IMG/VR virus record: IMGVR_UViG_3300032167_007646
Length of the DNA: 64,000 bases
Reading direction: 5' to 3' (one strand)
Source: a virus
Lineage: Duplodnaviria; Heunggongvirae; Uroviricota; Caudoviricetes
Shown: piece by piece, positions 6,459-42,430 of the stretch
How positions within the stretch are numbered: position 1 is the first letter of the stretch
Layout of the letters: each line of letters opens with the position of its first letter
Made by a program: the position numbers and the translations under genes
The notes under the pieces: generated by a model
What the model was told of the DNA's origin: nothing
Seen by the model: only the letters and a program-made list of their open reading frames with translations
Databases searched by the model: none

Positions 6459-6469
6459 AATAACACTCC

Positions 6470-7689: not shown

Positions 7690-7741
7690 CTATTTTTTAT
7701 AAAAAAATAAGACTAACAAAAAAAGTTAGCCTTATAATTCA

Positions 7742-8050: not shown

Positions 8051-8075
8051 TAACCACCAATCTTAAGTTATTGTA

Positions 8076-14962: not shown

Positions 14963-15202
14963 TTAATTTCTATTCATAAATACTACTTGTTCTCTTATTA
15001 AAGTAGAACACTCATCAATATGCTCACATAAAGAACAATGACTAAAACATTCTTTAAATTTCATTGTTTTAATTAACTCATAACAACGAGAATTATCTTT
15101 AATAGGACCCCATAAGTTTTTACATTGACTATCTTTACAATCAAAACAATCCTTTATTGAATTTTTATCACAAACATTATTCATCAGCCAACACCCTCTC
15201 AC
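14963..15202 (-). CDS. Small Cys-rich protein (possible zinc-binding)
   Basis: 79-aa ORF with about 12 Cys. Confidence 0.3.
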   Translation of the reverse strand: MRGCWLMNNVCDKNSIKDCFDCKDSQCKNLWGPIKDNSRCYELIKTMKFKECFSHCSLCEHIDECSTLIREQVVFMNRN

Positions 15203-22367: not shown

Positions 22368-24617
22368 TTAATATTTTGTAACTAAAATAACTCTAATTCT
22401 ACCACCTGAAGTAATTGACTTATCATAATATAAACCAACTATTTGATAATCTTCATTCTCTAATAAATCTTCCATTGTTATTAACATATAATCCCAATTA
22501 TAATTTCTATAATAAATCTTTACATCATCATCTAATAAATAATGATTCTTACCTACTGTTGCATAAGTATTATTTAATTCCTCAACCTTACCATTTATCT
22601 TTGTTAAATTTGTCATAGAACTAACACTATTATTACTAAAAATTATTTTAGCTGGTCCAGTAGAAACACCCAATACACTATTTTGTGTACTGTGAACTTT
22701 TTCACTTCCGTCTATATTGTAATTGTATGTTCCAAACATTCTTTCACTATCTTTATTAACCTTTGTTACTATACCATAACTATAATAATCGCCTGTTACA
22801 TTCTTCAAAACCAATTTAGTTATAGCATTTTTTTCATTCATCTCATAATATAAAATATTTGAAGAAGATAACCTAACTCCATCTAATCTTTGAGGCTCCA
22901 CAGTAACATAAAGTGCAGACTTATTATTATCAGTAGTACCTATATCTATAATATCTACATGCTTTGATACAACATAATTACCTATATACATACTTTCTGC
23001 ATTAAATGTTCCATTTATTTCTTTCTTATTATTCTCTCTAATTTTTGAAATACTAGCCAAATCATTCTTAAATGTTATCTCTACAATACTATTTATATAA
23101 TTTGAAAAATCTGTTCTTGCCTTATATTCTACTAATTCTCCATCTGTCATTACAACACTTATATAATATTCTGAAACTTTTTTATCATTATCAGTTTCAT
23201 AATTCTTTATACCTGCATTTATTAAATAACCTATATTTTCTGAACCTACACTATCTGCTGCTATAACGGCTGCAATCTTTTTATCTTTACCTAACAATGC
23301 TGTTATTGTATCACCATACTTAAATTTTCCTGTTGAAGATAAAGACTTAAATGCATCTGCACTTTCTATTTCATACTGCTTACCTGATATTTCTACTGAA
23401 ACGGGTACTTCTTGATTAGGTATTGCACTATTATAAACGCCTGTTATTTTAGTATTATATACCATTACAATACCTAAATCCTCTGAATAATAATAAATAT
23501 CATTTAACTCCAAATCTTCTAATTCTATTGAACTACCATTTCTTAAAATTAAATAATCTTTAAACTTCAAATTATCATTTGATTTATAAACATAAGGACC
23601 ACTTAAATTACCCTTTGTTACACTTATATAATCTATTTCACCACTATCTGTTTTATAAATAGAAATAATATCTCCCATTTGAATTGCTGTTTTTACACTT
23701 GAAAAAACACTTTGTTTATTATTATAATATGTTATAGTATTATCATCAATATCTACTTGTTCAAAATCACCTGATTTATATACAATCACACCATCACTCA
23801 AAGCAGAATACACAACTTGTTTATCTGCTTTACCATTATCATCTGAAACAAATAATATAATAGTTTCACCATTCTCAACATAAATTGTACCCTTTTCACC
23901 TATCAGATTACTTACTTCTATTTCATAATCAAAAACACCATTTGTTGTCATTATTTTATTCAATGGAACACTTACATCCTCTTTTGAAGTTGCTAATAAA
24001 ACCACATCTTCCATCTTTACAACATCAAAATTATTATATAATGTATAACTTCCATTTTTCACTTTTGTATCTAACGCATTTAACAACAAATCTGCAACCT
24101 GCCTACGAGTTAATTTTTCACCTAATTTTGCATCAATACCATCAGTCAAATCAATATTATTTGCTAATGAATATTGACCAAAAGGGTATGAACTACCACA
24201 ATCTGCATCAGTATAACCCAATATTTTTAATAAAATTGTTAAAGCCTCTTCATACAAAACTTCATTTTCTGGTCTAAATGTACTATCAGGATAACCATTT
24301 ATTATAGCATTATCCACTCCTGCTCTTATATACCCTACCGCCCAATGTTTATAAGGTACATCTGAAAAAGGAGAAGTTTTTTGATTTAATGCTATTGATT
24401 TTCTATAACTTGAAATCATAGTTGCTACTTTTGTAAATTCTGCTCTGGTTACAGTATCATTCCATCTCATTTCACCATTAGCATCTCCAACCATAATTTC
24501 TAATGTTTTTAAAACAGAATATTTTGAATAATCTTCTATTTCTGCACTTACTGTGAAAGAACAAAGACTAAAAATAAAACAAAATATTAAAATTAAACTT
24601 AAAACTTTTTTCATCAC
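22368..24617 (-). CDS. Secreted cell-surface protein with N-terminal SLH (S-layer homology) domains
   Basis: Signal peptide. SLH-like 'FSDVPYKHWAVGYIRAGVDNAIINGYPDSTFRPENEVLYEEALTILLKILGY' and related repeats. Confidence 0.65.
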   Translation of the reverse strand: MMKKVLSLILIFCFIFSLCSFTVSAEIEDYSKYSVLKTLEIMVGDANGEMRWNDTVTRAEFTKVATMISSYRKSIALNQKTSPFSDVPYKHWAVGYIRAGVDNAIINGYPDSTFRPENEVLYEEALTILLKILGYTDADCGSSYPFGQYSLANNIDLTDGIDAKLGEKLTRRQVADLLLNALDTKVKNGSYTLYNNFDVVKMEDVVLLATSKEDVSVPLNKIMTTNGVFDYEIEVSNLIGEKGTIYVENGETIILFVSDDNGKADKQVVYSALSDGVIVYKSGDFEQVDIDDNTITYYNNKQSVFSSVKTAIQMGDIISIYKTDSGEIDYISVTKGNLSGPYVYKSNDNLKFKDYLILRNGSSIELEDLELNDIYYYSEDLGIVMVYNTKITGVYNSAIPNQEVPVSVEISGKQYEIESADAFKSLSSTGKFKYGDTITALLGKDKKIAAVIAADSVGSENIGYLINAGIKNYETDNDKKVSEYYISVVMTDGELVEYKARTDFSNYINSIVEITFKNDLASISKIRENNKKEINGTFNAESMYIGNYVVSKHVDIIDIGTTDNNKSALYVTVEPQRLDGVRLSSSNILYYEMNEKNAITKLVLKNVTGDYYSYGIVTKVNKDSERMFGTYNYNIDGSEKVHSTQNSVLGVSTGPAKIIFSNNSVSSMTNLTKINGKVEELNNTYATVGKNHYLLDDDVKIYYRNYNWDYMLITMEDLLENEDYQIVGLYYDKSITSGGRIRVILVTKY

Positions 24618-26548: not shown

Positions 26549-28168
26549 TTATCTTCCCATTCCTGCTGGTGGACCACTCATATTGCCTGTTGGTCTTTCA
26601 CCTGACTTCATTGAATCTTCCATTTGTTCCATCATTTCCATTATACCATTTGTTGCTTGTATTTCACGACCACGAACTATATCTCCTTCTGACAATCCTG
26701 AAACAATTTGAATATTTACGCCATCTGTTACTCCTGTTTCAACAGATACAGTTTTATAACCCTCTGGTGCTGTATCTTTTTCATCTTCTTTATTACCTTT
26801 AACAAAAACTGTATTTCCCCTATTTAAACACTCTGAAGGTATAACTAATACATTATCTGCTTTTTCTATTACTATATCTGCGTCTATATTCATACCTGGC
26901 ATTAATTTATCATCAAAGTCTTTTATTCTAACAGTCACAGGATATACAGTAACTCCATTTGAAGAAGTTCCTTTTACATTTATCTTTTCTACATAACCTT
27001 TATATTCTTTACCTACAACTGCGTCTGCTATAATTATAACTTCTTGTCCTACTTCTATTTTTGCAATATCCAATTCATCTACTTCCATATCAAATTTTAA
27101 GCTTGATAAATCATATATTACTGCCAAAGTATTAGCACCTTTTGTATTATCTAAGGAATCCCCAACTTTTTTCTGTTTATCTATAACAGTTCCTGTTATA
27201 GGCGCTTTTATAGTATAATCATCCAAAGATTCTAATGTTCTTTCTCTATTTAATTCTGTTTCTCTATAAGAAATTTCTGTTGTTCTCTTTTGGTCCATTA
27301 AAGTTTCATTTTCTAATTTCAAAACCACAGAATTTTTATCTATCCATTTATTATTTTCTATATTTAATTCTATTATCTCTCCTGCTGCTTTTGAAGTAAT
27401 AACTTCTTCAACAAAATATTCAAAACTACCACTACTATTACAAGCAATATCATTTATAATTGCAGTAGCTGTATCACCTTTTAATACTGAACCTGGATTT
27501 TTTATCTCTATTTCTACATCTTTTACTCTCATATAAGACGCTTTTGCATAAGACTGTGAATTTATAGAAACAACCTTGCCAATTATTTCATTATCTGAAT
27601 TATCTAAATAAACTAAAGCTTCTTGACCTACATAAAAACCATCAACATCTCTTTCATTAAAAGGTATTTTTATTAACATACGAGTATCATCATATATATT
27701 TGCTATAACCTGACCATTATTTATTGTATCACCTATTTCGACATTAACATTTGTGGTTATACCTGAATATTCTGTTTTCAATGTCAAGTCTTCTATGGAA
27801 TCATTAATATTTTCTAATGACATATTAGCCTTCTCCATATTTAATCCTGAAGATTCTATTGATTTTGCTACATCACTACTATCTATTTCAAACATTACTG
27901 CGTCTTCTTTTACTACATCACCCTCTTCAAAATATGTAGCAAGTATATCACCTGATACAGAAGTTGTTATAGTATATTGGTCATTTGGCTGTATTGTCGC
28001 CTTACCTGATATTGTACTATCTATTGTTCCTAAACTTACTGTATAATCATTTACAATTACATTTGAATTATTATCTTTATTACTTCCTAATAATTTTAAC
28101 CCTATTAATACTATTGCAATTACTATTATAATTATAAAAATTTTCTTAAACTTCTTTAATATTTTCAT
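26549..28168 (-). CDS. HlyD-family periplasmic adaptor / efflux membrane-fusion protein
   Basis: N-terminal TM anchor, a long coiled-coil/beta-barrel region, and a Gly/Pro/Met-rich C-terminus. Confidence 0.65.
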   Translation of the reverse strand: MKILKKFKKIFIIIIVIAIVLIGLKLLGSNKDNNSNVIVNDYTVSLGTIDSTISGKATIQPNDQYTITTSVSGDILATYFEEGDVVKEDAVMFEIDSSDVAKSIESSGLNMEKANMSLENINDSIEDLTLKTEYSGITTNVNVEIGDTINNGQVIANIYDDTRMLIKIPFNERDVDGFYVGQEALVYLDNSDNEIIGKVVSINSQSYAKASYMRVKDVEIEIKNPGSVLKGDTATAIINDIACNSSGSFEYFVEEVITSKAAGEIIELNIENNKWIDKNSVVLKLENETLMDQKRTTEISYRETELNRERTLESLDDYTIKAPITGTVIDKQKKVGDSLDNTKGANTLAVIYDLSSLKFDMEVDELDIAKIEVGQEVIIIADAVVGKEYKGYVEKINVKGTSSNGVTVYPVTVRIKDFDDKLMPGMNIDADIVIEKADNVLVIPSECLNRGNTVFVKGNKEDEKDTAPEGYKTVSVETGVTDGVNIQIVSGLSEGDIVRGREIQATNGIMEMMEQMEDSMKSGERPTGNMSGPPAGMGR

Positions 28169-31112: not shown

Positions 31113-32681
31113 TTATTTTCTATTTTTAGATGTCTTTTTTGTATCAGATTCAGTATTTGATACTTCTTCTTCTACTTTATTTTCAATTGTAACACCTTTT
31201 AAACCCTCTGTTATTGCACCTGCAATATTAGAACCTATTTTTTCTTCTTTACTTTCATTAGCATCCATTAACATTTTTGTACCTAAAGCACCTGCTAATA
31301 CAGATTTAATATCTATACCTAAACCTGCTGTTAATCCCTCTGAAATTTGAGAAGTTGATTTAGTAATATCCTCAACTAATTTAGAAGTATTACCCTCACC
31401 ATACATAGTAATCTTATCAATATTAGCCAAAGGTTTAGCAACATGCTCAGCAATTTCAGGTAATATCTTAAAGTACATTTCAAGAACAGCAGCCTCTTTC
31501 ATCTTAGCCATAGCTTCTGCTTTCTTTTCAGTTGCTTCAGCTTCAGCAATACCTTTTGCTCTTACTGCTTCTGCTTCTGCAAGACCTCTTGCTCTAATAC
31601 CCTCTGCTTCCTGTTCTGCTTCATACTTACGAGCATCTGCATTTATCCTTAATGCTTCAGCCTCACGCTCTACTTCAAACTTTTTAGCCTCTGCATCTTT
31701 TTGACGCTTATACAATTCAACTTCAGCCATTTTTTCTTGTTTATACTTTTCAGCGTCAGCCTGCTTACGAATTGTAGCACTCAATTCTTGTTCTTTAACT
31801 TCTGCTTCCTTTTTCTTCAATTCAACAGCTTTTTCCTGTGCAGCAATATTCGCATTTGCTGTAGTTATTTCTATTGTTTTACGCTGTTCCTCTTTCTGAA
31901 TTTCATAAGCAGCATCAGCTTCAGCCTGCTTAACATCAGATTCTCTTTTTAGTTCAGCCTGTTTTATCTTCAACTGATTTTGCTTTTCTGCAATATCTGT
32001 ATCTGAATTAACCTGTGCTTCATTAGCCATTTTCTTTGCCTCTGCTTCCGCAATAGCAACATCTCTTTCTGCCATAGCCTTTGCAATTGAAGCATCTTTT
32101 TGAATTTGAGACATATTATCCTGACCTAATGCTACAATCAAACCCTTTTCATCATCAATTCTCTGAATATTACAAGAAATAATTTCAATACCTAAAGCAT
32201 TCATATCTTTCTGTGCTTTTTCTTGAACTTCATCACCAAACTTCTTTCTATCAGTACAAAGTTCTTTCAATTTAACAGTACCTATAATTTCTCTCATATT
32301 ACCTTGTAAAGAATCAGTTAAAGCACTAACTATTTCATCTTCTCTCATATTCAAGAAGTTTTTCATAGCCAATTTAATACCCTCATCATCTGTCTTTACC
32401 CTAATTTTAGCAACAGCATCTATATCTACACCTATAAAATCTAATGTAGGAATATAACCATTTGTCTTAATATCTACAGTTATTTGCTTAACAATAAGAT
32501 TATCCTTTCTTTCTAAAAAAGGAATCTTAATACCTGCTCTACCTATCAATATACGAGGTTCTTTTCTATAACCTGATATAATATAAGCTTTATCAGGTGG
32601 AGCTTTAACATAACCTGACATCAAAATGATTAAAAAGAATATAACCACTGCCACTACTGGAATTATAATTGATAAATCCAT
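31113..32681 (-). CDS. Flotillin-like SPFH/band-7 protein (FloT/YuaG-like)
   Basis: N-terminal TM, SPFH domain, and a long Ala/Glu-rich 'EA-repeat' coiled coil. Confidence 0.75.
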   Translation of the reverse strand: MDLSIIIPVVAVVIFFLIILMSGYVKAPPDKAYIISGYRKEPRILIGRAGIKIPFLERKDNLIVKQITVDIKTNGYIPTLDFIGVDIDAVAKIRVKTDDEGIKLAMKNFLNMREDEIVSALTDSLQGNMREIIGTVKLKELCTDRKKFGDEVQEKAQKDMNALGIEIISCNIQRIDDEKGLIVALGQDNMSQIQKDASIAKAMAERDVAIAEAEAKKMANEAQVNSDTDIAEKQNQLKIKQAELKRESDVKQAEADAAYEIQKEEQRKTIEITTANANIAAQEKAVELKKKEAEVKEQELSATIRKQADAEKYKQEKMAEVELYKRQKDAEAKKFEVEREAEALRINADARKYEAEQEAEGIRARGLAEAEAVRAKGIAEAEATEKKAEAMAKMKEAAVLEMYFKILPEIAEHVAKPLANIDKITMYGEGNTSKLVEDITKSTSQISEGLTAGLGIDIKSVLAGALGTKMLMDANESKEEKIGSNIAGAITEGLKGVTIENKVEEEVSNTESDTKKTSKNRK

Positions 32682-32803
32682 AATCTCATCTTTCCCTTCT
32701 ATAATTTTTATAAAGAAAAATATTCTTTATTATATTTTAATTATGTAAACTGTCTTAATAACTGTCCAAACAATACCATTTCTGTTAAATAATATAAAAT
32801 TAT

Positions 32804-32848
32804 ACAAAAAAAAGATGTGTTAAACATAAAGTTTAACACATCTTTTTT
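32804..32848. terminator. Bidirectional intrinsic terminator ending the operon
   Basis: A-run, then hairpin GATGTGTTAAAC-ataaa-GTTTAACACATC, then a T-run. Confidence 0.6.
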
Positions 32849-32850
32849 AT

Positions 32851-33232
32851 TTAATCACAATTACAATCGCAATCACAATCACAATCGCAATCACAAGACA
32901 TATCACAACTAAAATCCCCTGTATCACAAACACAATCATCTTGAATTGTAGAATTATTTATTTCATCTTTAACCATATTTTCTATTTCACTATGTAATAA
33001 AACAGATTTACCATATTTTCTACTACCTAAAATAGATACTTCTCTCTCATCAAATTTTTTTCTTTATATCCTCTGATAATCCATATTTTCTACTACCTAA
33101 AATACTTGACCTGTTTCTTCCCTGATAAGCAAAACTATTACGAGCAACTTCCATACCTTTTTTAAAGCCCTCATGATAACCCTCTTGATAACCATCATGC
33201 CAAGATTTTATTTCTTTATTCTTATCTTTCAT
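32851..33232 (-). pseudogene. Frameshifted gene: a 60-aa ORF (33050-33232) followed in the +1 frame by an ORF ending in a 41-aa Cys/Asp-repeat tail (MVKDE...CDCDCDCDCDCNCD). Removing one base from a T7/A7 run at 33055-33061 fuses them.
   Basis: Hand translation. ORF1 ends '...ILGSRKYGLSEDIKKKI*'. The downstream frame reads '...FDEREVSILGSRKYGKSVLLHSEIENMVKDEINNSTIQDDCVCDTGDFSCDMSCDCDCDCDCDCNCD*'. A 24-bp direct repeat (33017-33040 and 33087-33110) encodes ILGSRKYG twice. Confidence 0.4.
32855..32900 (-). repeat. Imperfect hexanucleotide repeat (plus strand ACAATC[A/G])n encoding (Cys-Asp)n
   Basis: Plus strand reads 'acaattacaatcgcaatcacaatcacaatcgcaatcacaag'. Seen directly in the sequence. 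Confidence 0.8.
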
Positions 33233-33242
33233 ATTATCACCC

Positions 33243-33410
33243 TTACAACTTTATTTTTTTATTTTTCAAAGAACCATCCCAAATACTCCTAATCTTACAT
33301 ATAAAAGAATTTCTATTTCTATCATCATCTATTGACACACAAACAGGAACATCTTTACCCTCTTGTGCTAATGCTATCTTTTCTTTTGCAGTTAAATACT
33401 TTTTCTTCAT
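33243..33410 (-). CDS. Small hypothetical protein; start moved to MKKKYLTAKEK
   Basis: Short ORF inside the operon. Cys-containing. Confidence 0.3.
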   Translation of the reverse strand: MKKKYLTAKEKIALAQEGKDVPVCVSIDDDRNRNSFICKIRSIWDGSLKNKKIKL

Positions 33411-33423
33411 ACCTACATCTCCT

Positions 33424-34821
33424 TTACCATACAATTATAGGCATTGATTTATCTATATTTTCATAAACAACTTTTGCTGCATTTAATGGCATATTTACAC
33501 AACCATGAGAACCATTCCACTTATAAATATTCCCACCAAATTGATACCTCCAAGTAGCATCATGCAAACCTATACCACCATCAAAAGGCATCCAATACTT
33601 AACGGGTGTTTCATAATCTACACCCCTTAATACAGCATTTCTTGTTTTATATGTAAGAGAAAAAATACCTTTACGAGTACCCATATTTCTACCAACATTT
33701 CCTGTAACAACAGGAGTATCAACTATACATTCACCATTTACATACATCCAAACCCTCTGATTATCTATACTTACTTCTACATAACTATTTGAGAAATCTT
33801 TTTCACCAAATACTGCACCCTTTTGACTGAATATACCATCAAATGTTCCTGAATTTTTATTTAATAAATTTTCTTTTATGCTCTCAATCATTTTATTTCT
33901 ATCTAATATCCAACCATAATCCCCATTTGAAACTGTAATTACATCACCTGTGGAAGTTGTAAAAGAACGAGAAGTACCTATTGTAGTATATTTTTTATTC
34001 AACTCACCTACAAAAGATTTTACACCATCATTATCTATGTTAAAAGGTTTATCACCATTTAATGATATACCATCTTCTATATAATTAGGTATTAACCAAG
34101 CATAAAATATAGGTAAAGTAATTTTTTCTTTATTATTACCAAAAATGTATTCTAATTCAACTTCTTTATAACTGTTATAAATACCTAAATTACTGTTCAA
34201 AACTGAATTTTCTTTAATTACCTCTGGTGCTTCATAACAATTCAACTCTACAAAATCTATCTCTTTTTCAAAAGATTTTAATGCTTGTTCAAAAATATCA
34301 GAACAACCATCTACAAAAACATTGCCATAAACTTCTGGTATTATTTCAAATTCATTCTTTTCTATATTATATGTAATATACGCATTTTTTGATTCTATAA
34401 TATTTTCTTCATTCTTTTTACTTATAGTATTTATAATACTATCTATACTATCCTTATCTATAATAATAACATTAGTTAAATCTAAAGATTGTGTAGATTT
34501 ACTAAATAAAAATTTAAATTTACTCAATTTTCTTAAATTTTCCAATAATACTTCTTGATTTATATTTTCTATAACTTCAGAATATGACTTTTCTTCTGTT
34601 GAATTATCTGACAACTTTATAACAAAATTATAATCATTTATTTCATTTGAAATAATTTCACTTGCTTGTTTATTTGTCTTAAAACTTATATCTATATCAC
34701 CTATATCTGTACTTACTACAGAAGTAAAAGGAAAAACAATATTAAACAATACAACAACACCTATTACTACGACAAGTAAAATACTACACGCAACTATAAT
34801 CCAGTTGCTTACCTTTTTCAT
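33424..34821 (-). CDS. Membrane-anchored L,D-transpeptidase (YkuD-domain) protein
   Basis: N-terminal TM. C-terminal catalytic region '...GIGLHDATWRYQFGG...GSHGCVNMP'. Confidence 0.7.
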   Translation of the reverse strand: MKKVSNWIIVACSILLVVVIGVVVLFNIVFPFTSVVSTDIGDIDISFKTNKQASEIISNEINDYNFVIKLSDNSTEEKSYSEVIENINQEVLLENLRKLSKFKFLFSKSTQSLDLTNVIIIDKDSIDSIINTISKKNEENIIESKNAYITYNIEKNEFEIIPEVYGNVFVDGCSDIFEQALKSFEKEIDFVELNCYEAPEVIKENSVLNSNLGIYNSYKEVELEYIFGNNKEKITLPIFYAWLIPNYIEDGISLNGDKPFNIDNDGVKSFVGELNKKYTTIGTSRSFTTSTGDVITVSNGDYGWILDRNKMIESIKENLLNKNSGTFDGIFSQKGAVFGEKDFSNSYVEVSIDNQRVWMYVNGECIVDTPVVTGNVGRNMGTRKGIFSLTYKTRNAVLRGVDYETPVKYWMPFDGGIGLHDATWRYQFGGNIYKWNGSHGCVNMPLNAAKVVYENIDKSMPIIVW

Positions 34822-34850
34822 TAACTATCTACCTACCTTTACTACAAATA

Positions 34851-35405
34851 TTATCCATCACGTCTATCCCAAGTCTTTTTAGTCTCTACTTCTGCTGAAA
34901 TAGGTTCTTGTTCTGCTTCTATCTTTTCATCAAGATGTTTTAATGATTTACCACAAATATCACAATAATTTGACTTAAATATAGATAATTTATACAAAGC
35001 ATCTGCTACATCATCAGCTTCAAATAACTCTTTACCACAAACACAAAATAAACTACCATCATTAAATACTAATCCATTTTTCTCAAGTAATTTATCAGAA
35101 TATTTACTATCAGAAAGTCTTAAAATCTTATCAATAGTTTCTCTTATTTTATCCTCACCAACAATATTCATGTTCTTTACATTATTTACAAGCATAGAAG
35201 CAAGAGTATTAAGAATAAACTCATTTTTAGCCTTTTCATCTTCCTTAAATTTTTCAGGTACTCTTATTTCACCACAATTAGGACAAATTCTTACAGCAAT
35301 TTGATTTACATCTATACCACCATAATCATTATCCCCATAACCACCGTCTGAATGATACCAAGTAGTATCATAATACACATTTTTATTACAAAATTTACAA
35401 GCCAT
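34851..35405 (-). CDS. Cys-rich zinc-ribbon protein
   Basis: CxxC pairs 'CKFCNK', 'CPNCGE', 'CVCGKE' and 'CDICGK'. Confidence 0.4.
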   Translation of the reverse strand: MACKFCNKNVYYDTTWYHSDGGYGDNDYGGIDVNQIAVRICPNCGEIRVPEKFKEDEKAKNEFILNTLASMLVNNVKNMNIVGEDKIRETIDKILRLSDSKYSDKLLEKNGLVFNDGSLFCVCGKELFEADDVADALYKLSIFKSNYCDICGKSLKHLDEKIEAEQEPISAEVETKKTWDRRDG

Positions 35406-35417
35406 AATTGTTCCCCC

Positions 35418-36206
35418 TTAACCCATATGATTACAAGCAAAATTTGATAAAGCATAAAGTTTTTCTACAACAAAATCAGGAATATAACCACTTTCACTAT
35501 GCACACAAATTTTACCTAAAACTTCTATATTTATATTATCAACAGTTAATTTACCACTTGTAATACCATCTCTCAAAGCCTTACACTCTTTACTATTCTT
35601 TTTATAGGAACAATAATCACAAGAAAAGTTATCTACTTCTTTATCATCACCCTCTAAAAGACAATCAGTACAACTAAAATACCATCCTATAAGACCTTTA
35701 CAATCCCAAGAATTGCAAACATATTCTTCTGAACAATCTGTTACCAAATCTATTACTTTTTCATCTGTAGAAAAATCTACCATATAAAAAGGTGCCATAC
35801 GAACAGGTCCTTCATTTGATTTCTTATGTTCTTCAAACTTTCTCTTCCAAAACTCTACATAATCTGCATAAGTTTCACATTCTAACCAATCAATATTATA
35901 ATCAAAATAATCCCAAGTTTCAAAACCAAAATCTTTCTTCAATTTCTTATTGATTTTATCATGCTCTTCATATAATTCTTTTGTATATTTTCCATCCTTA
36001 ATATACTTAAAAGAACTTGATTTTTCATCATAATAAACACCATAATCAGATGCTACTTTTAACAATTTTTCTTTATTCTCATAATATTCTCTATAATATT
36101 CTTTAATCATATTAAAAAGAATATCTTTTGTTTTATCATCATCTTTTTTACCAATTATGAAACTACTACTCGAACTATTTGTAACATAATCCATCCTAAT
36201 TTTCAT
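35418..36206 (-). CDS. DFVTNSSSSSF-tag family protein, paralog 4 (Cys-rich; C-terminus 'ACNHMG')
   Basis: N-terminus 'MKIRMDYVTNSSSSSFIIG'. Full-length paralog of 37348-38133. Confidence 0.5.
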   Translation of the reverse strand: MKIRMDYVTNSSSSSFIIGKKDDDKTKDILFNMIKEYYREYYENKEKLLKVASDYGVYYDEKSSSFKYIKDGKYTKELYEEHDKINKKLKKDFGFETWDYFDYNIDWLECETYADYVEFWKRKFEEHKKSNEGPVRMAPFYMVDFSTDEKVIDLVTDCSEEYVCNSWDCKGLIGWYFSCTDCLLEGDDKEVDNFSCDYCSYKKNSKECKALRDGITSGKLTVDNINIEVLGKICVHSESGYIPDFVVEKLYALSNFACNHMG

Positions 36207-36207
36207 A

Positions 36208-36654
36208 TCAATCTTCCTCCAATATTACAAAATATTCTTTATTCATTTCTGCTAAACCTTTTATCATCTCTGTCAAAGTATCATCTGAATAATCTATATA
36301 CTTAAATAAAATTTTATATCCATCATGAACATACTCAATTATCTTTTCATAATCTTCCTTACAATAAGGAGAATTGATAAATAAAGTTTCTAATGTATCT
36401 TGACTACTACCATATCTACCTAAAAAATACTTATTAAAAGATTCTTCATCTTTACAAAGAACACCCTCTGTTGTTTCATCATAAGAAGAACCTGCTGAAA
36501 ATAGAATTTTATCTACCATTTCATTGATATTTCTCAAAAAAGGATAACGCTTCAAGACATCTTCATCCAAATTTGGAAAATCTTTATATGCAATAACAAA
36601 ACTACTACTTGAACTATTTGTTACAAAATCTGTTCTTAACTTCATTATAACCAC
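36208..36654 (-). CDS. DFVTNSSSSSF-tag family protein, paralog 3 (short)
   Basis: N-terminus 'MKLRTDFVTNSSSSSFVIA'. Shares only the tag with the other paralogs. Confidence 0.5.
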   Translation of the reverse strand: MVIMKLRTDFVTNSSSSSFVIAYKDFPNLDEDVLKRYPFLRNINEMVDKILFSAGSSYDETTEGVLCKDEESFNKYFLGRYGSSQDTLETLFINSPYCKEDYEKIIEYVHDGYKILFKYIDYSDDTLTEMIKGLAEMNKEYFVILEED

Positions 36655-36655
36655 C

Positions 36656-37336
36656 TTACCTTTCTACTTCTTCAAAATACATATTCAACCATTCTAAAGG
36701 TATTTCTATCCATTGGAAAATATTTTGATGATATAATTCTAAATGAACTTCACCATCTAATGCACTATCAACATCTTCATTCAATTCATATAAACTATCC
36801 TTATTTACTGCAATTTGGTCATTGCTACAATCACAATTATCCAAATAAAATGACTTAATACATCTATATAATTTAGGTTCTTCTACTTCAACCATTTTAT
36901 TTGAAACATATTCTGTATTTTCTTTAATATCAAATATATGAGCCAAAGGTAATTTTGTCTTATAAAATGCACCCTCACCTATATATCTCATATCATCAGA
37001 TTGTTCAAAATGAAAAAGATTTTCACATTCTGCAAAGGCATATTTACCAATATAATGTAAATCACTACCACCTTTATTAAGATGTACTGACCATAAATTT
37101 TTAAATCCCCTAAAAGCATTATCACAAATAACTCTTACACTATCTGGTAACACTACTTCTCTTACAGTTTCTTCATGTAAAATACCTTTTTCATCTTTAA
37201 GCATATCACAAAGAACTTCTCTTGAAACAACTTCAATACCATCTGGAAAATATACTATATTTGTTCCAACCTCTGGACTTACTTCAAATTCGATATAACC
37301 ATATAATTGTTTCTTATAATCCACAAACGACACCAC
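36656..37336 (-). CDS. Leucine-rich-repeat protein (BspA-type LRR_5-like)
   Basis: Repeats 'IGKYAFAECENL' and 'IGEGAFYKTKL'. Confidence 0.5.
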   Translation of the reverse strand: MVSFVDYKKQLYGYIEFEVSPEVGTNIVYFPDGIEVVSREVLCDMLKDEKGILHEETVREVVLPDSVRVICDNAFRGFKNLWSVHLNKGGSDLHYIGKYAFAECENLFHFEQSDDMRYIGEGAFYKTKLPLAHIFDIKENTEYVSNKMVEVEEPKLYRCIKSFYLDNCDCSNDQIAVNKDSLYELNEDVDSALDGEVHLELYHQNIFQWIEIPLEWLNMYFEEVER

Positions 37337-37347
37337 CTAACATTTAT

Positions 37348-38133
37348 TTAACCCATATGATTGCAATAAACATTAGATTTTGCACCTAATTTTTCTACAA
37401 CATATTCAGGTATATAACCACAATAACTTATCACACCTATTTTACCTAATACCTTGCAAACAAGTGTCTCTTTTGTATATTTACCTTCTTTTTCATTTGA
37501 CTTAAACTTTTCACAAGCATCTTTATTATGATTAAAAGGACATTCCCCACATTCTCCAATATAATTTCCTTCTAAATCATAATCCTGCTCTTCTGATGGG
37601 AAAAGAACACAAGGTAAATACCAATCTATCAATTCTTGATAATCAAAGCTATCTTTGAATAACTTACCATCTGGCATTTCTCTATCTTTTTCAAAATCAA
37701 TTATATCAAAAGGTCTCATAGAAAAACCATGAGCATCCTTTGAATCTTTTCCACCAAAAAATTCTACAAAATCATCATAAGTTTCACATTTTAACCACTC
37801 AAAATTATGATAAAAATATAAATCACAAAGTTCTACACCAAAATCTTTTTTCAAACGAGCATTTATTTCTTTACGCTCTGCTCTAAGTTCATCAGTAAGT
37901 TTACCAAACTTAATATATGTAAAACACTCTCTTTCTACATCCCAACAAACACCATAATCTTTTGCAACAGGCATAAGTCTTTTCTTTATATCTAAAAACT
38001 CTTTATAAATATGTCTTACAAGTTCATATACAGTATTTTTATCAATACCATCACCATATTTACCTATAATAAAACTACTACTTGAGCTATTTGTAACAAA
38101 ATCTTTTCTAAATTTCATACCTACTACCACCAA
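37348..38133 (-). CDS. DFVTNSSSSSF-tag family protein, paralog 2 (Cys-rich; C-terminus 'YCNHMG')
   Basis: N-terminus 'MKFRKDFVTNSSSSSFIIG'. Aligns along its full length with 35418-36206. Confidence 0.5.
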   Translation of the reverse strand: MVVVGMKFRKDFVTNSSSSSFIIGKYGDGIDKNTVYELVRHIYKEFLDIKKRLMPVAKDYGVCWDVERECFTYIKFGKLTDELRAERKEINARLKKDFGVELCDLYFYHNFEWLKCETYDDFVEFFGGKDSKDAHGFSMRPFDIIDFEKDREMPDGKLFKDSFDYQELIDWYLPCVLFPSEEQDYDLEGNYIGECGECPFNHNKDACEKFKSNEKEGKYTKETLVCKVLGKIGVISYCGYIPEYVVEKLGAKSNVYCNHMG

Positions 38134-38829
38134 TCATTCTAATTCTAATGTTCTTGTATGTTTACATTTACCTGTTTTCTTACAATATGTAAAAGTTTCT
38201 GTGTCATTACTACTTCTACCACCTGCATACTCTTCAAAATCTTCCTCAGTAACTTCTTCCACAGAAATACCTTTTTCTGCTGCTATATTTTTATAAATCT
38301 TCTTTAATGTTTTCTTATCATAACAGTCAGGATACATTCTTGTATCACTATCTCCACCCCAACCATAATCATTATACTCTATCTCTACATCACCAATATC
38401 ATTAAATATTTCTTTACTTCTCAATAATATTTCTTTTGCAATCTGACTATTTTTAGGCAAAGGATTCTCTTCTTCAAAATCAATTTTAGGAATACAACCC
38501 TTTCTACTAATAATAGCATATTCTGTATCAAATAAAGATATAAAAGTATTTAAAGCCTCTCTTAAATTTTTAGGTGCTTCATAGATATAACCATCTTGTT
38601 CCGTATATGTAACAATATCGCCATCTACATTTAAATTATTTAAGGCATAAGTATAACCATTAAAATCCTCTTCTGATAAATCTACATCCTTATCATATAA
38701 TTTAGGACAAACTTCTAACTGAAATCTTTTTATAATCTCTGAAAGAGTTTTACTCTCAATTTGAACAGTAATAAAACTACTACTAGAACTGTTTGTAACA
38801 AAATCACTTCTAAATTTCACTTTATACAC
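38134..38829 (-). CDS. DFVTNSSSSSF-tag family protein, paralog 1
   Basis: N-terminus 'MYKVKFRSDFVTNSSSSSFITV'. The rest of the protein is unrelated to the other paralogs. Confidence 0.5.
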   Translation of the reverse strand: MYKVKFRSDFVTNSSSSSFITVQIESKTLSEIIKRFQLEVCPKLYDKDVDLSEEDFNGYTYALNNLNVDGDIVTYTEQDGYIYEAPKNLREALNTFISLFDTEYAIISRKGCIPKIDFEEENPLPKNSQIAKEILLRSKEIFNDIGDVEIEYNDYGWGGDSDTRMYPDCYDKKTLKKIYKNIAAEKGISVEEVTEEDFEEYAGGRSSNDTETFTYCKKTGKCKHTRTLELE

Positions 38830-38833
38830 TCCT

Positions 38834-39073
38834 TTAATTCATATCTTCACGAGCAATATTATATCCTATTTGAAGAAGTTTTGCTTTCTTTGTTGCCGCT
38901 AACTTGCTTGTAGCGTCAGCTATTTTATAAAAAGGAACTTGCATAGGATTCTTTTCATAAACCACAAAATTATCTATTCCCTCTTGTTTAACCATAAAAT
39001 TATTAAAATGAATAGTATCATCTATTTGTTTCATTTTAGGATTATAAATTTCTTCAAACTTCATATAACTCAC
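38834..39073 (-). CDS. Hypothetical protein
   Basis: 79-aa ORF in the operon. Confidence 0.3.
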   Translation of the reverse strand: MSYMKFEEIYNPKMKQIDDTIHFNNFMVKQEGIDNFVVYEKNPMQVPFYKIADATSKLAATKKAKLLQIGYNIAREDMN

Positions 39074-39082
39074 TCCAATAAA

Positions 39083-39427
39083 TTATTCTATTATCCCTAA
39101 AATTGCAAAATCATAAGTAGAAAACTTAATAGACTTACCATTACCAAAGAACACAAATATAGTTTTATTATTTGTAACCTCAAGGGATTTAGAATCAGCA
39201 AAAGCTTTATCTATTTCTTCCGCTTCTGAATAAAACTTTCTAATATCCCTTTCTTGTTCATTTTCATCATCAGTCTTAAATACAAAACCTAACTGAATAT
39301 AAGCAGAAAAAACAAAATCACCCATTAGTTCTTTCATATAATTAGTAATATCATAACGATATTCTGTAAAATCCTTAAAGTCTTTATTGCAAAACTTATT
39401 CTTATATTTTTCCAACAAAATCACCAA
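39083..39427 (-). CDS. Hypothetical protein
   Basis: 114-aa ORF in the operon. Confidence 0.3.
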   Translation of the reverse strand: MVILLEKYKNKFCNKDFKDFTEYRYDITNYMKELMGDFVFSAYIQLGFVFKTDDENEQERDIRKFYSEAEEIDKAFADSKSLEVTNNKTIFVFFGNGKSIKFSTYDFAILGIIE

Positions 39428-39431
39428 CCTA

Positions 39432-39701
39432 TTATTTTACTTTTTTTATTGCACACTTTTCAGTACTTACTACAAGTTTTTCTCCATCTTTTACAAACAA
39501 AGTAATTGCACCGTCATCAATATCATATGTACTTACCTCAAACTGCTTAACAGCACCATTTGGCTGTTCTACTGTTGCAATATAACTTGTATTTGCAATC
39601 TTAAACATCATAAGAACCATTAGAGTTGCTATAACTACTGCAATACCAACTGCTATAAAATCAATACCTTTTACAATTTCTACAAATCTTTTCTTCAACA
39701 T
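39432..39701 (-). CDS. Small membrane-anchored protein
   Basis: 89-aa ORF with one TM helix. Lies directly downstream of the SPASM gene. Confidence 0.35.
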   Translation of the reverse strand: MLKKRFVEIVKGIDFIAVGIAVVIATLMVLMMFKIANTSYIATVEQPNGAVKQFEVSTYDIDDGAITLFVKDGEKLVVSTEKCAIKKVK

Positions 39702-39706
39702 AACTA

Positions 39707-41026
39707 TTAACCTCCATAGAATTCTCTTTCTTTATTATCACAAAGAACAATATCATTTACCAAAGGACAACCACCCATACAAAGTTCTCTCTTTGGACAT
39801 CCCTTACAACTATATCTTAAACAATCTCTAAACTTATTAAATTCTGAACTTTCCCAAGCATCCTTTATAGTTACTTTATCAGAAAGTTTAACAGCATACT
39901 TTTGGTCCTGATTATCAAAAGAACAAGGCAAAGCAGTCATATCTGCTGCAATATACATAGAATATCTACTACCCTCACAGGTATCAACACTACAAGTATC
40001 AATATGCTTACTCCAACGAACAACTGCAGGAATAGAACAACTATCAAAACCAATCTTAAATGGTGTTCTATGATTATCTACCAATTCAAAGAACTCTTTC
40101 ACACGAGGGTCATCAAGTCTTAAAACGTCATCATAATCACCCAAACCAACTGGTTTATGAAGGAGAAACACAACAGCATTTATACCTTTTGGAAAACCAT
40201 TATATTTAACTCTCAAAATTGCCTCATCTATTGTTGAATTACTCAATACATAATGAATATTTGTCTTTACACCCGCGTCTAACAACATCTTAATTGCTTT
40301 CATTGTATAATTAGGCTTCTGAACCTCATTATACACTTTATAAAATTCATATTCTTGGGGTTCTTCACTATAATACATATGATGAACTTCATCCCAAGCA
40401 TAATCTAATTCATTTATTTTATAAGCAGGTTCATCCCACTTACATTCTTCATTCAGACCACCAAGAGTAAATAATACAGGAATATCATCTTCTGATTTAT
40501 AAACTTTCTTTTTATCCTCACTATGTACCCTTCTTAGTGCTAAATCTGGTATCATATCCAAACGAGAGTATTGCGAGACTGCCACAGCACCACAATACTT
40601 TTTACAAAGAGCAGCCTTTTCAGGTGTCATACCAAGACCACTTGTTGTAAAATTAGGTATAATACCATTATCACGAGTGTATTTTAAAACTTCTTCAAAA
40701 TTCTCATGCATATCTGGGTCACCACAACCACCTAATGCTATTTCAAACAATCTTTCTTTAGACCAATCTATAATTTTTTTATAATCTTCTAACTTCATAT
40801 TAGGTTTATCTGAATGTAATCCATCCTGATAACACTTAATACCTGCTTTCATACAAAGACCACTTTTTCCATGAGCACAATTTCCCATTAAACCAACATC
40901 TATGAGGTGAGGATACTCTGCCATAAATGGGTCTTCTTCTACATCAAAAGCCCTAATATATTCTCCTGTCTTATCATTAAACATTGTTGTAAAATTATAT
41001 TCACCATCTCTAATTACTCTAATCAC
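39707..41026 (-). CDS. SPASM-domain protein, probable radical-SAM enzyme with a non-canonical N-terminal Cys triad (C-x8-C-x6-C); GTG start
   Basis: C-terminal SPASM '...CSVDTCEGS...C...CLRYSCKGCPKRELCMGGCP'. Gly-rich 'ALGGCGDPDMH'. N-terminal 'GNCAHGKSGLCMKAGIKCY' replaces CxxxCxxC. RBS AGGTGG sits 7 nt before the GTG. Confidence 0.55.
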   Translation of the reverse strand: MIRVIRDGEYNFTTMFNDKTGEYIRAFDVEEDPFMAEYPHLIDVGLMGNCAHGKSGLCMKAGIKCYQDGLHSDKPNMKLEDYKKIIDWSKERLFEIALGGCGDPDMHENFEEVLKYTRDNGIIPNFTTSGLGMTPEKAALCKKYCGAVAVSQYSRLDMIPDLALRRVHSEDKKKVYKSEDDIPVLFTLGGLNEECKWDEPAYKINELDYAWDEVHHMYYSEEPQEYEFYKVYNEVQKPNYTMKAIKMLLDAGVKTNIHYVLSNSTIDEAILRVKYNGFPKGINAVVFLLHKPVGLGDYDDVLRLDDPRVKEFFELVDNHRTPFKIGFDSCSIPAVVRWSKHIDTCSVDTCEGSRYSMYIAADMTALPCSFDNQDQKYAVKLSDKVTIKDAWESSEFNKFRDCLRYSCKGCPKRELCMGGCPLVNDIVLCDNKEREFYGG

Positions 41027-41048
41027 TTAAACCACCTATCACCTTTCA

Positions 41049-41192
41049 TTATATTGACATAACTATTAACATTACTAATAAACCTATAACTACAACACCT
41101 ACTATAACCAAAAATATAAACATACAAATGTCATCTCCATCAAATCCAGAGAAAAAATCTTTAATTATATTTTTTAACTTTTCAAACCACAA
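41049..41192 (-). CDS. Small membrane peptide, paralog a (MWFEKLKNIIKDFF...; TTG start)
   Basis: Hand translation: amphipathic N-terminus followed by a C-terminal TM helix. RBS AGGAG. Missing from the track because it is shorter than 60 aa. Confidence 0.35.
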   Translation of the reverse strand: MWFEKLKNIIKDFFSGFDGDDICMFIFLVIVGVVVIGLLVMLIVMSI

Positions 41193-41203
41193 AGAACTCA
41201 CTC

Positions 41204-41380
41204 CTATATTACACCTGTAAAAATAGATATAAAAAAACTTACTACTACTACAATAAGAACTATAATTAAAACTATCATAAAATAGTCATCTATGTCTGCA
41301 AATGCAAAAAAATCACAAACTTCATCTAAAATATCACTTATAAACTCTTTAATTCTATTCTTTATCTTATCAAACCACAT
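41204..41380 (-). CDS. Small membrane peptide, paralog b (MWFDKIKNRIKEFISD...)
   Basis: Hand translation. RBS AGGTGG. Same architecture as paralog a. Confidence 0.4.
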   Translation of the reverse strand: MWFDKIKNRIKEFISDILDEVCDFFAFADIDDYFMIVLIIVLIVVVVSFFISIFTGVI

Positions 41381-41387
41381 AATCCAC

Positions 41388-41528
41388 CTACAACATTTCC
41401 AACAATATGTTTATTAGCAACATCGCAAAGAAAGTAAATAAAACTAAATAAAAACCAAAAGAAAATTCAGATATATTAAAATAATAAATAGACCTTTTCA
41501 ACTTCTTTAATTTTAAATCTAATTTCAT
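41388..41528 (-). CDS. Small membrane peptide, paralog c (MKLDLKLKKLKRS...)
   Basis: Hand translation. RBS GGCGGTGG. First gene after the promoter at 41559-41587. Confidence 0.3.
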   Translation of the reverse strand: MKLDLKLKKLKRSIYYFNISEFSFGFYLVLFTFFAMLLINILLEML

Positions 41529-41558
41529 AAAACCACCGCCATACTTTTAATCTATTCT

Positions 41559-41587
41559 ATTATAACCTAAAAACAACTAATTGTCAA
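41559..41587 (-). promoter_or_regulatory. Sigma-A-type promoter TTGACA-N17-TATAAT driving the ~8.7-kb operon
   Basis: Minus strand reads TTGACA at 41582-41587 and TATAAT at 41559-41564 with a 17-bp spacer. Confidence 0.6.
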
Positions 41588-41597
41588 TAAGCACAAA

Positions 41598-41632
41598 TAA
41601 AAAATAGATTAGTTTTTCAACTAATCTATCTT
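41598..41632 (-). terminator. Intrinsic terminator after the 41637-42161 gene
   Basis: Hairpin ATAGATTAGTT/AACTAATCTAT followed by a U-run on the minus strand. Confidence 0.5.
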
Positions 41633-41636
41633 TAAA

Positions 41637-42161
41637 TTACATTTTTTCTAACTGTGTTGCTTTTAATTCTAAATGTTTCATAAAATTTTCAGTTGTTTTT
41701 TTACCCTCTATATCTGAAAACTCTAAATTCATCATACATTCTCTATATTTATTTTCCATACCTTTTATAAGAGTCTTTCGTATATCAGATAACATTCTGT
41801 ATGTATTTTCATTAGTCATACCATCACCTATCATACAAAAACCAATTTCACTTGCTAATTGTAAAATTCTAAACCCGCTATCTGTCTTCTCTAATTTATA
41901 AGTATAACTACCCTCACGCACTAGACCTAAACAATAATTTATCAATTTTACAAAATTATTCAAATGTTCATCAGTTAAATTACCATTCTTTATTTCAACT
42001 GTATTTATTTGCCCTACTTTCATACGTTGTATTTTATTCTTTACAGCAGATTTACTATGATTTCTAAATTTTCTATGTATATCTTCTACTGTCAATCCTT
42101 CTTCCAAAAATTTCAATAATTTTAACTCTTCTGATTTAGTCCAAATTGCCATCATAAACAC
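41637..42161 (-). CDS. Hypothetical protein with an N-terminal Myb/SANT-like HTH
   Basis: 'WTKSEELKLLKFLEEGLTVEDIHRKF...' resembles the repeats of the 50119-52923 helicase. Confidence 0.35.
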   Translation of the reverse strand: MFMMAIWTKSEELKLLKFLEEGLTVEDIHRKFRNHSKSAVKNKIQRMKVGQINTVEIKNGNLTDEHLNNFVKLINYCLGLVREGSYTYKLEKTDSGFRILQLASEIGFCMIGDGMTNENTYRMLSDIRKTLIKGMENKYRECMMNLEFSDIEGKKTTENFMKHLELKATQLEKM

Positions 42162-42166
42162 CCCAC

Positions 42167-42430
42167 TTAAGACTCTCTAATAATACAATTCCTTACTATT
42201 CTATCTGCTAAATTTCCATACATAGAATATTTCCATTTCTTTTTATCATCCCAAGTTCTCCATTCACTTTCTGGAATACTATCAATTTTTTCAATAAATT
42301 TCTTTAATGTGTCTTTTTCTTTTTGAGTAATATGAAACCACATACTACCATTATGTGCTATCAAAGGTACATTATTTTCATCATCTAAATAATGTTTTAC
42401 TGAACTAGGTACTCTAATCATAAAAATCAC
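42167..42430 (-). CDS. Hypothetical protein
   Basis: 87-aa ORF. Confidence 0.3.
   Translation of the reverse strand: MIFMIRVPSSVKHYLDDENNVPLIAHNGSMWFHITQKEKDTLKKFIEKIDSIPESEWRTWDDKKKWKYSMYGNLADRIVRNCIIRES

Follow-up and report, generated by a model that had tools for sequence, protein, structure and literature searches.

The 64,000-nucleotide stretch of Caudoviricetes DNA analysed here (IMG/VR record IMGVR_UViG_3300032167_007646; the whole stretch is called the window) was found to carry, on its minus strand between positions 32804 and 41632, a transcription unit that includes the gene for an atypical radical S-adenosylmethionine (SAM)/SPASM enzyme and four genes for proteins that begin with the same short peptide, here designated the tag. 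The functional core of this unit is a two-component module made up of one such enzyme and a variable set of tagged proteins. Its parts in the window are listed below, with lengths in amino acids (aa).

39707..41026, minus strand: component 1, atypical radical SAM/SPASM enzyme, 439 aa, with SPASM above cut-off and a phrog_7293 match at E = 4.5e-25
40832..40879, minus strand: predicted cluster-binding loop of the enzyme, C50-x7-C58-x6-C65-YQ, in place of the canonical CX3CX2C
39740..39979, minus strand: SPASM domain of the enzyme, residues 350-429, with C-x2-C-x5-C-x3-C...C for auxiliary iron-sulfur (Fe-S) clusters
38134..38820, minus strand: component 2a, 228-aa protein headed by tag MKFRSDFVTNSSSSSF and started by GTG; no match to a Pfam or NCBIfam family
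37348..38118, minus strand: component 2b, tagged protein of 256 aa, tag MKFRKDFVTNSSSSSF; body of a family ending in CNHMG and the stop codon
36208..36645, minus strand: component 2c, tagged protein of 145 aa, tag MKLRTDFVTNSSSSSF at residue 1; AlphaFold model available
35418..36206, minus strand: component 2d, 262-aa protein headed by tag MKIRMDYVTNSSSSSF; a paralog of component 2b

The products of the four tagged genes begin MK(F/L/I)RxD(F/Y)VTNSSSSSF. The start codons lie at 38820 (GTG) and at 38118, 36645 and 36206 (ATG), and the tag therefore starts at residue 1 in each. That these genes share an N-terminal tag had been noticed in the first-pass annotation of the sequence, and the observation was borne out by a degenerate DNA pattern for the tag, which matched four times in the window and not once in 100 shuffles. 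The general form of the tag is the near-invariant 16-residue sequence M-K-(I/F/V)-(R/K)-x-D-(F/Y)-V-(T/S)-N-S-S-S-(S/T)-S-(F/Y). Among 398 distinct tagged proteins gathered from all loci, K2, R4, D6, T9, N10, S11 and S12 are each kept in 393-398 (at least 98.7%) and S13-S15 in 377-389; F or Y occupies positions 7 and 16, and a start codon stands at tag position 1 in 392. The rare variants SSDSS, SSSAS, SSSSC and SSSTS occur, and variants follow the clades of the enzyme, SSDSS being found in one clade and K4, S9 and SSSTS in the proteobacterial clade. Copies of the tag encode constant amino acids with differing codons, AGY or TCN for Ser and AGA or CGN for Arg; selection therefore acts on the tag peptide, and a DNA or RNA element behind its conservation was ruled out by this synonymous turnover.

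Beyond the tag the proteins vary widely. The first-pass annotation had described the four as paralogs, which stood for the 261- and 262-aa open reading frame (ORF) proteins, aligned over their full length with 44% identity, and did not stand for the 231-aa protein, which aligns weakly (24%), or for the 145-aa protein, which aligns N-terminally; in a profile-profile comparison of the latter with the 261-aa family only the first ~41 columns align. No family above threshold was found for the tagged proteins of the window in Pfam, NCBIfam, PHROGs or PADLOC, the sub-threshold signals being a marginal phrog_7397 match to the tag itself and a weak phrog_33586 match. A profile of the 261-aa family, tag included, retrieved 3,476 clusters (50% identity) at E <= 1e-3 and 133 at E <= 1e-30. 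Viral contigs yielded 258 unique complete tagged proteins, in which at least 31 BLAST-unlinked families were counted. The median length is about 144-156 aa and the longest tagged protein has 1062 aa; the bodies are acidic (median isoelectric point 4.5; 97% below 5.5). Long members carry BspA-type leucine-rich repeat (LRR; LRR_5), TIR or BRCT domains, and fusions of the tag to LRR_5 form a 33-member group that includes those at loci L027 and L195. A 743-aa tagged protein at L151 (1186-3417) contains TIR_2 (E = 6.9e-10), TIR being an immune effector module. Each enzyme is accompanied by 1-10 tagged genes; the largest array observed consists of ten consecutive tagged genes downstream of the enzyme in a Gastranaerophilales-binned contig (L163, 8321-12648).

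Two unrelated bodies were modelled with AlphaFold. The model of the 256-aa protein had a mean predicted local distance difference test (pLDDT) score of 81 and a predicted template modelling (pTM) score of 0.80, with ORF residues 1-16 below 50, and that of the 145-aa protein had a mean pLDDT of 87 and a pTM of 0.79, with residues 1-11 below 50 and the first strand at residues 14-20. In both models the Ser run passes straight into the first beta-strand, the bodies are alpha/beta sandwiches, and the tag is predicted to be flexible. Neither model gave a meaningful fold match in PDB or BFVD.

These models bear on an improbable alternative, in which what looks like a tag is the leading conserved motif of a single, highly divergent superfamily of enzymes or ligand-binding proteins, for instance a phosphate- or metal-binding Asp/Thr/Asn/Ser loop, and the SPASM enzyme merely acts in the same pathway. 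The Asp, Thr, Asn and Ser run ahead of a beta-strand resemble nucleotide- or metal-binding loops, the first strand of both alpha/beta sandwiches comes right after the tag, and the C-termini of several families contain His in motifs such as CNHMG or SHH. However, no second motif is common to the families, profile alignment ending after the ~41 columns mentioned, and bodies of LRR, TIR, BRCT and zinc-ribbon-like type all carry this one tag; moreover, the tag segment is unpacked in both models, and its strict position at residue 1 would be unusual for an active-site loop. Individual readings of D-x-x-T-N-S as a macro, HAD, PIN, DEDD or alkaline-phosphatase-like motif were dropped, as no supporting second motif or profile match was found.

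The identification of component 1 as a SPASM-domain enzyme, made at first from the sequence alone, was confirmed by two models, Pfam PF13186 (25.1 bits against a cut-off of 21.5; residues 350-411) and TIGR04085 (29.5 against 27; residues 350-424), and C350, C368, C407, C410, C416, C420 and C429 are invariant in the ortholog alignment. The Radical_SAM Pfam score is 24.8 bits for the window enzyme, under the cut-off of 29.5, and 52.4 bits for the Agrobacterium homolog. The cluster-binding loop has at least two Cys in all 126 unique orthologs and at least three in at least 119 of them, with the spacing CX7CX6C in 94 and CxCX3CX3C in ~22; the canonical CX3CX2C was present neither in the window enzyme nor in the 126 phage-type orthologs. 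As proteobacterial homologs have the canonical motif and score over the Radical_SAM threshold, the phage enzymes appear to descend from a genuine radical SAM enzyme and, as far as can be judged from their sequences, are derived members of this group with an expanded loop. The GGE-like motif ALGGxGD is invariant among the orthologs. In L055 and L126 the enzyme gene is split immediately before this motif by an intein-like insertion of ~400-425 aa (L055 ~3782-6128; ORFs of 782 and 789 aa in the two loci), which begins with Cys and ends with His-Asn, then Cys. Inteins typically insert at functionally critical sites. Another insertion, of ~85 aa at residues ~155-240, is present in the window enzyme and in that of its close relative L209 and absent from all other orthologs. 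Weak sequence matches of the enzyme were to PqqE, MftC, a tungsten-cofactor maturase and BtrN, and profile matches to PDB entries were marginal only (BtrN and PqqE).

The association of this enzyme with tagged proteins extends far beyond the window and was met again at over a hundred phage loci. In each of the first four long contigs with distant tagged homologs (29-32% identity), a SPASM protein of 353-375 aa lay 0.3-3 kb upstream; these enzymes are 49-58% identical to that of the window, and all other flanking genes differ. Scanning IMG/VR with the tag pattern gave at least 120 stretches, many with 2-6 tandem tags. Among the matches listed, 43 tag-anchored stretches had at least 4.5 kb upstream of the first tag, and a same-strand enzyme was found in 40 of them, at a median distance from the tag of 0.6 kb and at most 2.4 kb. 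The enzyme alone was also used as the anchor, which gave 80 genome loci, 76 of them with a full-length enzyme; most are metagenome-assembled genomes of Lachnospiraceae, Oscillospiraceae and other Clostridia, together with Lacrimispora amygdalina, [Clostridium] aminophilum and Dorea acetigenes. A tagged ORF lay within -4/+5 kb of the enzyme in 75 of the 76 loci, on the same strand in 73 of the 75. In the Clostridial genome loci inspected that have no strict-consensus tag, a single long tagged protein stands beside the enzyme and carries BRCT in L178, L197 and L204; neighbouring genes include those for UvrD, RNase T, HEPN and WYL proteins in L197 and SbcCD-like genes in L131 and L204. In the contig closest to the window (L001, 21 kb, with tagged genes 68% identical), four tags and an LRR_5 gene occupy 5940-8842, and no enzyme is present in the 5.9 kb upstream.

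When the enzymes were grouped into lineages at 90% identity (n = 45), the enzyme was common to 45/45, tagged genes to 44/45 and the next gene family to 9/45. Only the enzyme and the tagged genes are common across lineages, and the conserved system therefore consists of those two. The first-pass annotation had coupled a SPASM enzyme to tag-sharing proteins and had named conservation of the neighbourhood as the check; the near-obligate co-occurrence, seen in both search directions and in unrelated genomic contexts, sustains that coupling, and the functional link between enzyme and tag is very likely genuine. That there is no functional unit, the genes being adjacent by common phage descent or the N-termini being identical through gene conversion or a translation-initiation element, is hardly credible: close relatives such as L209 do have the whole operon by descent, but enzyme and tagged genes stay together even when all their neighbours change, and do so in Clostridia phages as well as in Proteobacteria, the many synonymous differences in the tag exclude conservation at the DNA level or recent gene conversion, and a chance match is excluded by the shuffled sequences.

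In Proteobacteria the pair is part of a tight four-gene operon encoding, in order, a SMEK-nuclease/Avs2-like STAND nucleoside triphosphatase (NTPase), a protein of 121-125 aa, a tagged protein of 131-133 aa and the radical SAM/SPASM enzyme. It was located at the following positions.

L213, 2550-7002: four-gene operon
L214, 4992-9443: four-gene operon
L217, 7225-9441: four-gene operon

The STAND protein has 883-888 aa, with SMEK_N at E = 3e-42 and an Avs2-like NTPase region at a PADLOC E of 1.5e-21. The tag of these operons reads MK(I/V/L)K(L/M/F)DFVSNSSSTSF. Homologs of the enzyme are encoded by megaplasmids of Agrobacterium, Rhizobium and Rhodobacter and by Proteus mirabilis; with 34-37% identity across 93% of the length, they contain the canonical CDKGC(V/S)FC and exceed the Pfam Radical_SAM cut-off. 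The four-gene arrangement occurs in pAt of Agrobacterium Ach5, on Rhodobacter plasmids, in many Proteus mirabilis isolates and in Methylomonas, where IS66 disrupts the STAND gene, and it is adjoined by integrases, insertion sequence (IS) elements or conjugation genes. A tagged protein and its enzyme in Agrobacterium tumefaciens Ach5 are WP_051489734.1 and WP_038496256.1. Its tagged protein is ~50% identical across Alpha-, Gamma- and Deltaproteobacteria and Bacteroidota and is annotated as hypothetical throughout. The operon is not among the PADLOC systems, and no STAND gene was found in the window. The closest homologs of the enzyme in cultured phages are those of Slopekvirus (T4-like Klebsiella and Enterobacter phages; 167 records), which belong to phrog_7293, have 32% identity and contain the SPASM motif and the spacing CX7CX2C; an example is gp161 of Enterobacter phage phiEap-3 (L128, 7824-9086), and the family is mostly annotated as hypothetical.

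In the window, the transcription unit that contains the module is delimited by three signals.

41559..41587, minus strand: sigma-70-type promoter, TTGACA-17-TATAAT, 12/12 consensus positions with 17-nt spacing
~41595..41633, minus strand: intrinsic terminator of the upstream gene, a hairpin with a T run behind it, folding at -16 kcal/mol (z = -5.6; equalled by 0/200 shuffles)
32806..32848, minus strand: bidirectional intrinsic terminator ending the unit, an 18-bp stem between A and T runs; -21.3 kcal/mol, z = -7.2

Both the single near-perfect promoter and the closing terminator claimed in the first-pass annotation were recovered, the promoter being the sole perfect site within 32400-42300. 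The hairpin at the 3' end had been missed by a consensus scanner because its stem is AT-rich, and the terminator at ~41595-41633 shields the operon from upstream read-through. The close packing of the genes likewise held, although their number was reduced from about 20 to 17 plausible minus-strand genes; the gaps are 0-29 nt, and so leave no space for intergenic terminators, except for 73 nt before the last small ORF. Internal signals comprise an 11/12 promoter-like site (35923..35895) and a weak terminator-like site (37733..37715), both intragenic and at the level expected by chance in AT-rich DNA (82 promoter-like sites against 69 expected, and 2 terminator-like sites against 1.3). One transcript across the unit, as originally proposed, is the simplest reading.

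The unit also contains the following genes.

41049..41528, minus strand: three small membrane peptides of 46, 58 and 50 aa, co-transcribed and not common to other loci
38834..39701, minus strand: three small ORFs between the enzyme and the first tagged gene, of 89 aa with a transmembrane segment, 114 aa and 79 aa; no family matches
36656..37336, minus strand: untagged BspA-type LRR protein within the tagged array; LRR_5 E = 5.8e-13
32851..35405, minus strand: distal cargo, comprising a CxxC-rich protein of 184 aa, a YkuD L,D-transpeptidase, two ORFs of ~60 aa and a Cys/Asp-repeat ORF of 41 aa
33424-34821, minus strand: the YkuD L,D-transpeptidase; YkuD E = 1.2e-18, plus PG_binding_4

The family assignments made beforehand for the LRR protein and the L,D-transpeptidase were corroborated by these matches. 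That of the 184-aa protein as a zinc-ribbon protein was upheld in part, by its CxxC pairs, with sub-threshold matches only. Of the membrane peptides, proposed beforehand to be three paralogs, two clearly are; the third has the architecture alone in common with them. Counterparts of the first two small ORFs behind the enzyme, of 89 and 110 aa, were found in the close relative L209 only, which is also the only locus in which the whole operon layout recurs. Local cargo consists of the membrane peptides and the three small ORFs, together with the zinc-ribbon protein, the YkuD protein and the Cys/Asp ORF. The earlier view of the ~8.7-kb operon as one coherent system was thus abandoned, since other loci lack the membrane peptides as well as the zinc-ribbon protein, the L,D-transpeptidase and the Cys/Asp peptide, and the neighbourhood census ruled out the remaining operon genes as components of the system. 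The LRR gene had been described as inserted among the paralogs. Tag-LRR_5 fusions are the largest group of long tagged proteins; LRR_5 genes adjoin tagged genes in L001 and L209, and the LRR protein at 36656-37336 is probably a relative of the fusions rather than an accidental insert.

The 41-aa ORF (32851-32976, minus strand), whose C-terminus reads CDCDCDCDCDCNCD, lies on a (TGTGAT)n hexanucleotide repeat just ahead of the terminator. Its putative product resembles Cys/Asp-rich ranthipeptide precursors. No counterpart was found in the ~210 loci examined, and the peptide was rejected as a conserved substrate of the enzyme, being unique to the window and located on the repeat. A 24-nt direct repeat, tattttaggtagtagaaaatatgg (minus strand), occurs at ~33010-33033 and ~33077-33100, spanning the 3' end of a 60-aa ORF and the 73-nt gap, and looks like a small local duplication.

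The window as a whole has a G+C content of 28% and a strong negative GC skew, all its sizeable ORFs are on the minus strand, and no tRNA gene was found in its 64,000 nt. It encodes thymidine and thymidylate kinases, DNA methyltransferases, a SNF2-type helicase and a RepL-like protein, and it looks like the non-structural portion of a large phage-like element of a low-GC Firmicute. A UvrD-type helicase (18072-20912, minus strand) bears an intein, with Intein_splicing and Hint matches, and a DNA methyltransferase (15177-16922, minus strand) has an inserted segment, perhaps another intein, that matches unrelated phrogs (RNR, helicase). Genes for a flotillin/SPFH protein (31113-32681), an HlyD-type membrane-fusion protein (26549-28168) and an SLH-domain protein (22368-24617), all on the minus strand, represent envelope-related cargo that is unusual in a phage. 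Among 50,697 phage records, neither nucleotide relatives of the operon (megablast) nor matches of a tagged protein (tblastn) were found. In this setting the module is predicted to be expressed from a host-type promoter among non-structural phage genes.

The enzyme would recognise the tag, an exposed N-terminal overhang that would run into the first beta-strand of each body, and, by analogy with other SPASM enzymes, would modify it by radical chemistry. The candidate site is the T-N-S5 stretch, or a link from there to the conserved aromatic or basic residues; the chemistry might be an oxidation of Ser as in anSME or a cross-link involving F/Y7, K2/R4 or T9/N10. One enzyme would in this way confer a single post-translational feature on many unrelated proteins, and the sequence of the tag would be frozen because one enzyme serves many partners. 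With moderate confidence, we favour this full statement, an enzyme-tag module in which the enzyme modifies the tag.

Several observations weigh against it. The tag contains no Cys, and the commonest SPASM chemistry, thioether formation, is therefore excluded. The phage-type enzymes have no CX3CX2C and score below the Pfam cut-off for Radical_SAM, so that cleavage of SAM by them is not assured, and an RRE/PqqD-like leader-binding domain was not detected in the family-library search. Tag arrays L001, L096 and L106 have no enzyme within 4.5-12 kb upstream (among the matches listed), and no tagged genes occur near the distant Slopekvirus homologs of the enzyme, which differ in this from the enzymes described here. 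The co-variation of tag variants with enzyme clades could stem from shared descent alone, and low pLDDT values obtained from shallow alignments (20-27 sequences) are weak evidence of disorder.

The same linkage data would also be accounted for if the tag were a fixed docking peptide that plugs diverse binding modules into the enzyme, which would then modify third-party targets, much as F-box adaptors serve one ubiquitin ligase. This is a serious rival, even if we consider it unlikely. An arrangement of many partners around one hub accounts equally well for a frozen tag, many of the bodies are recognisable interaction domains (LRR_5, BRCT), and 1-10 diversified tagged genes per enzyme would fit a target-specific repertoire. 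However, five invariant serines exceed what a docking motif usually needs, the TIR-bearing tagged protein is an effector and not an adaptor, and the characterised SPASM enzymes (PqqE, MftC, anSME and the sactisynthases) act on the co-encoded peptide or protein itself.

A very improbable role for the tag is that of a targeting signal, sending proteins to the capsid interior, an export route or a compartment, with an indirect part for the enzyme. Tandem, polymorphic, fast-diverging small phage proteins with a short N-terminal peptide alone in common recall the internal-protein loci of phage T4, and the present tag is strictly N-terminal and predicted to be exposed. In the T4 internal proteins, which are found in virions, the capsid-targeting sequence shows only moderate conservation, is cut off by the prohead protease and is not associated with any Fe-S enzyme. 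Unlike that sequence, the tag is also found with its enzyme in non-phage bacterial operons, on proteobacterial chromosomes and plasmids beside a STAND NTPase and with no phage structural genes near, which makes the capsid packaging suggested in the first-pass annotation unlikely. No protease, portal or transporter is co-conserved with the pair, the tag has no hydrophobic or twin-arginine signal features, and such a signal would not explain why the enzyme is so nearly always present.

Modification of the tag by the enzyme, the reading preferred here, can be compared with known systems. In the SPASM peptide maturases (PqqE/PqqA, MftC/MftA and the sactipeptide, ranthipeptide and streptide synthases), the enzyme is, as here, encoded beside presumed substrates that share a recognition sequence and are otherwise variable, and the logic of one enzyme with many precursors is known from the prochlorosins. 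The present partners, however, are not short peptides but folded proteins, 100-850 aa long and belonging to at least 31 families; their tag is a near-invariant, Cys-free 16-residue sequence at residue 1, and the phage enzymes have CX7CX6C. Searches across the 45 enzyme lineages and the family libraries gave no conserved RiPP recognition element (RRE), protease or exporter/transporter of the kind that marks a cluster for peptides that are synthesised by ribosomes and then modified post-translationally (RiPPs); such clusters also encode short precursor peptides with a leader and a core, whereas the median tagged protein is 144-156 aa long and both modelled bodies are predicted with high confidence to fold.

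The enzymes anSME and AtsB are radical SAM/SPASM enzymes without an RRE; their target is a Ser (or Cys) within a short motif, close to the N-terminus of a full-length protein. The Ser-rich tag, too, heads full-length proteins, but many unrelated substrates would be served here, as against one enzyme family there. The (C/S)xPxR motif is absent from the tag logo, no sulfatase domain was found in any tagged protein, and no NCBIfam anSME model matched.

The nearest published concept is that of FxsB, a radical SAM/SPASM enzyme of NTPase-centred conflict systems, where it is accompanied by FxSxx-COOH peptides (Kaur et al. 2020, PMC7159879). There, as in the operon with the SMEK/Avs2-like protein, a SPASM enzyme and a co-encoded polypeptide with a terminal motif share an operon with a STAND-type or conflict NTPase (PMC7159879). 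The two differ in motif position, substrate size and partner genes: the FxsB motif is C-terminal, on short peptides, and accompanied by peptidase and vWA-MoxR components (PMC7159879), whereas here whole proteins carry the tag at their N-terminus, the NTPase resembles Avs2 and is joined to a SMEK nuclease, and an NTPase is absent from the phage versions. Avs systems are defined by a STAND NTPase with an N-terminal effector and a C-terminal sensor, and by protection against phage; the proteobacterial tag-enzyme pair follows a protein with SMEK_N and an Avs2-like NTPase region. The pair reads as a variant on the theme of radical SAM/SPASM maturases and their substrates, with a substantial chance that it is something more distinct. 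Full-text literature searches, in which the tag string was included, found no published description of the tag or of a tag-enzyme system; together with the lack of a family-library name for the tagged proteins, this agrees with the initial impression that the gene order matches no described system.

The module most likely serves phage-host conflict, because of its perfect host-type promoter in the window, the acidic and fast-diverging bodies, the fusions to LRR, TIR and BRCT domains, and the Avs-like operon; this role, like the binding and chemical modification of the tag by the enzyme, is inferred. It may be proposed, tentatively and as a speculation rather than an expectation, that the module is an unrecognised tagging system for conflict, in which a 16-residue tag commits dozens of unrelated, fast-evolving effectors or binders to one enzyme. 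The enzyme would install an N-terminal modification needed for their action, or would use them as adaptors on host or phage targets; bacteria would pair it with an Avs-like STAND nuclease, and large Clostridia phages would have expanded the arrays.

If the enzyme does modify the tag, radical SAM/SPASM enzymes would gain a new class of substrates, namely entire proteins with many different folds that are all recognised through a single short sequence at the N-terminus, and the chemistry would probably be new as well, because the tag is free of Cys, has five invariant serines and is paired with the non-canonical CX7CX6C. A 16-residue tag with its own dedicated enzyme might also find use in protein engineering. 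Tractable carriers are Agrobacterium tumefaciens Ach5 (pAt) and Proteus mirabilis, and the phage-type version is present in the genomes of Lacrimispora amygdalina, Dorea acetigenes and [Clostridium] aminophilum. If true, the proposal would account for a large set of anonymous phage proteins, tie that set to immune-type domains and to an Avs-like operon, and give a handle on new mechanisms of defence or counter-defence.

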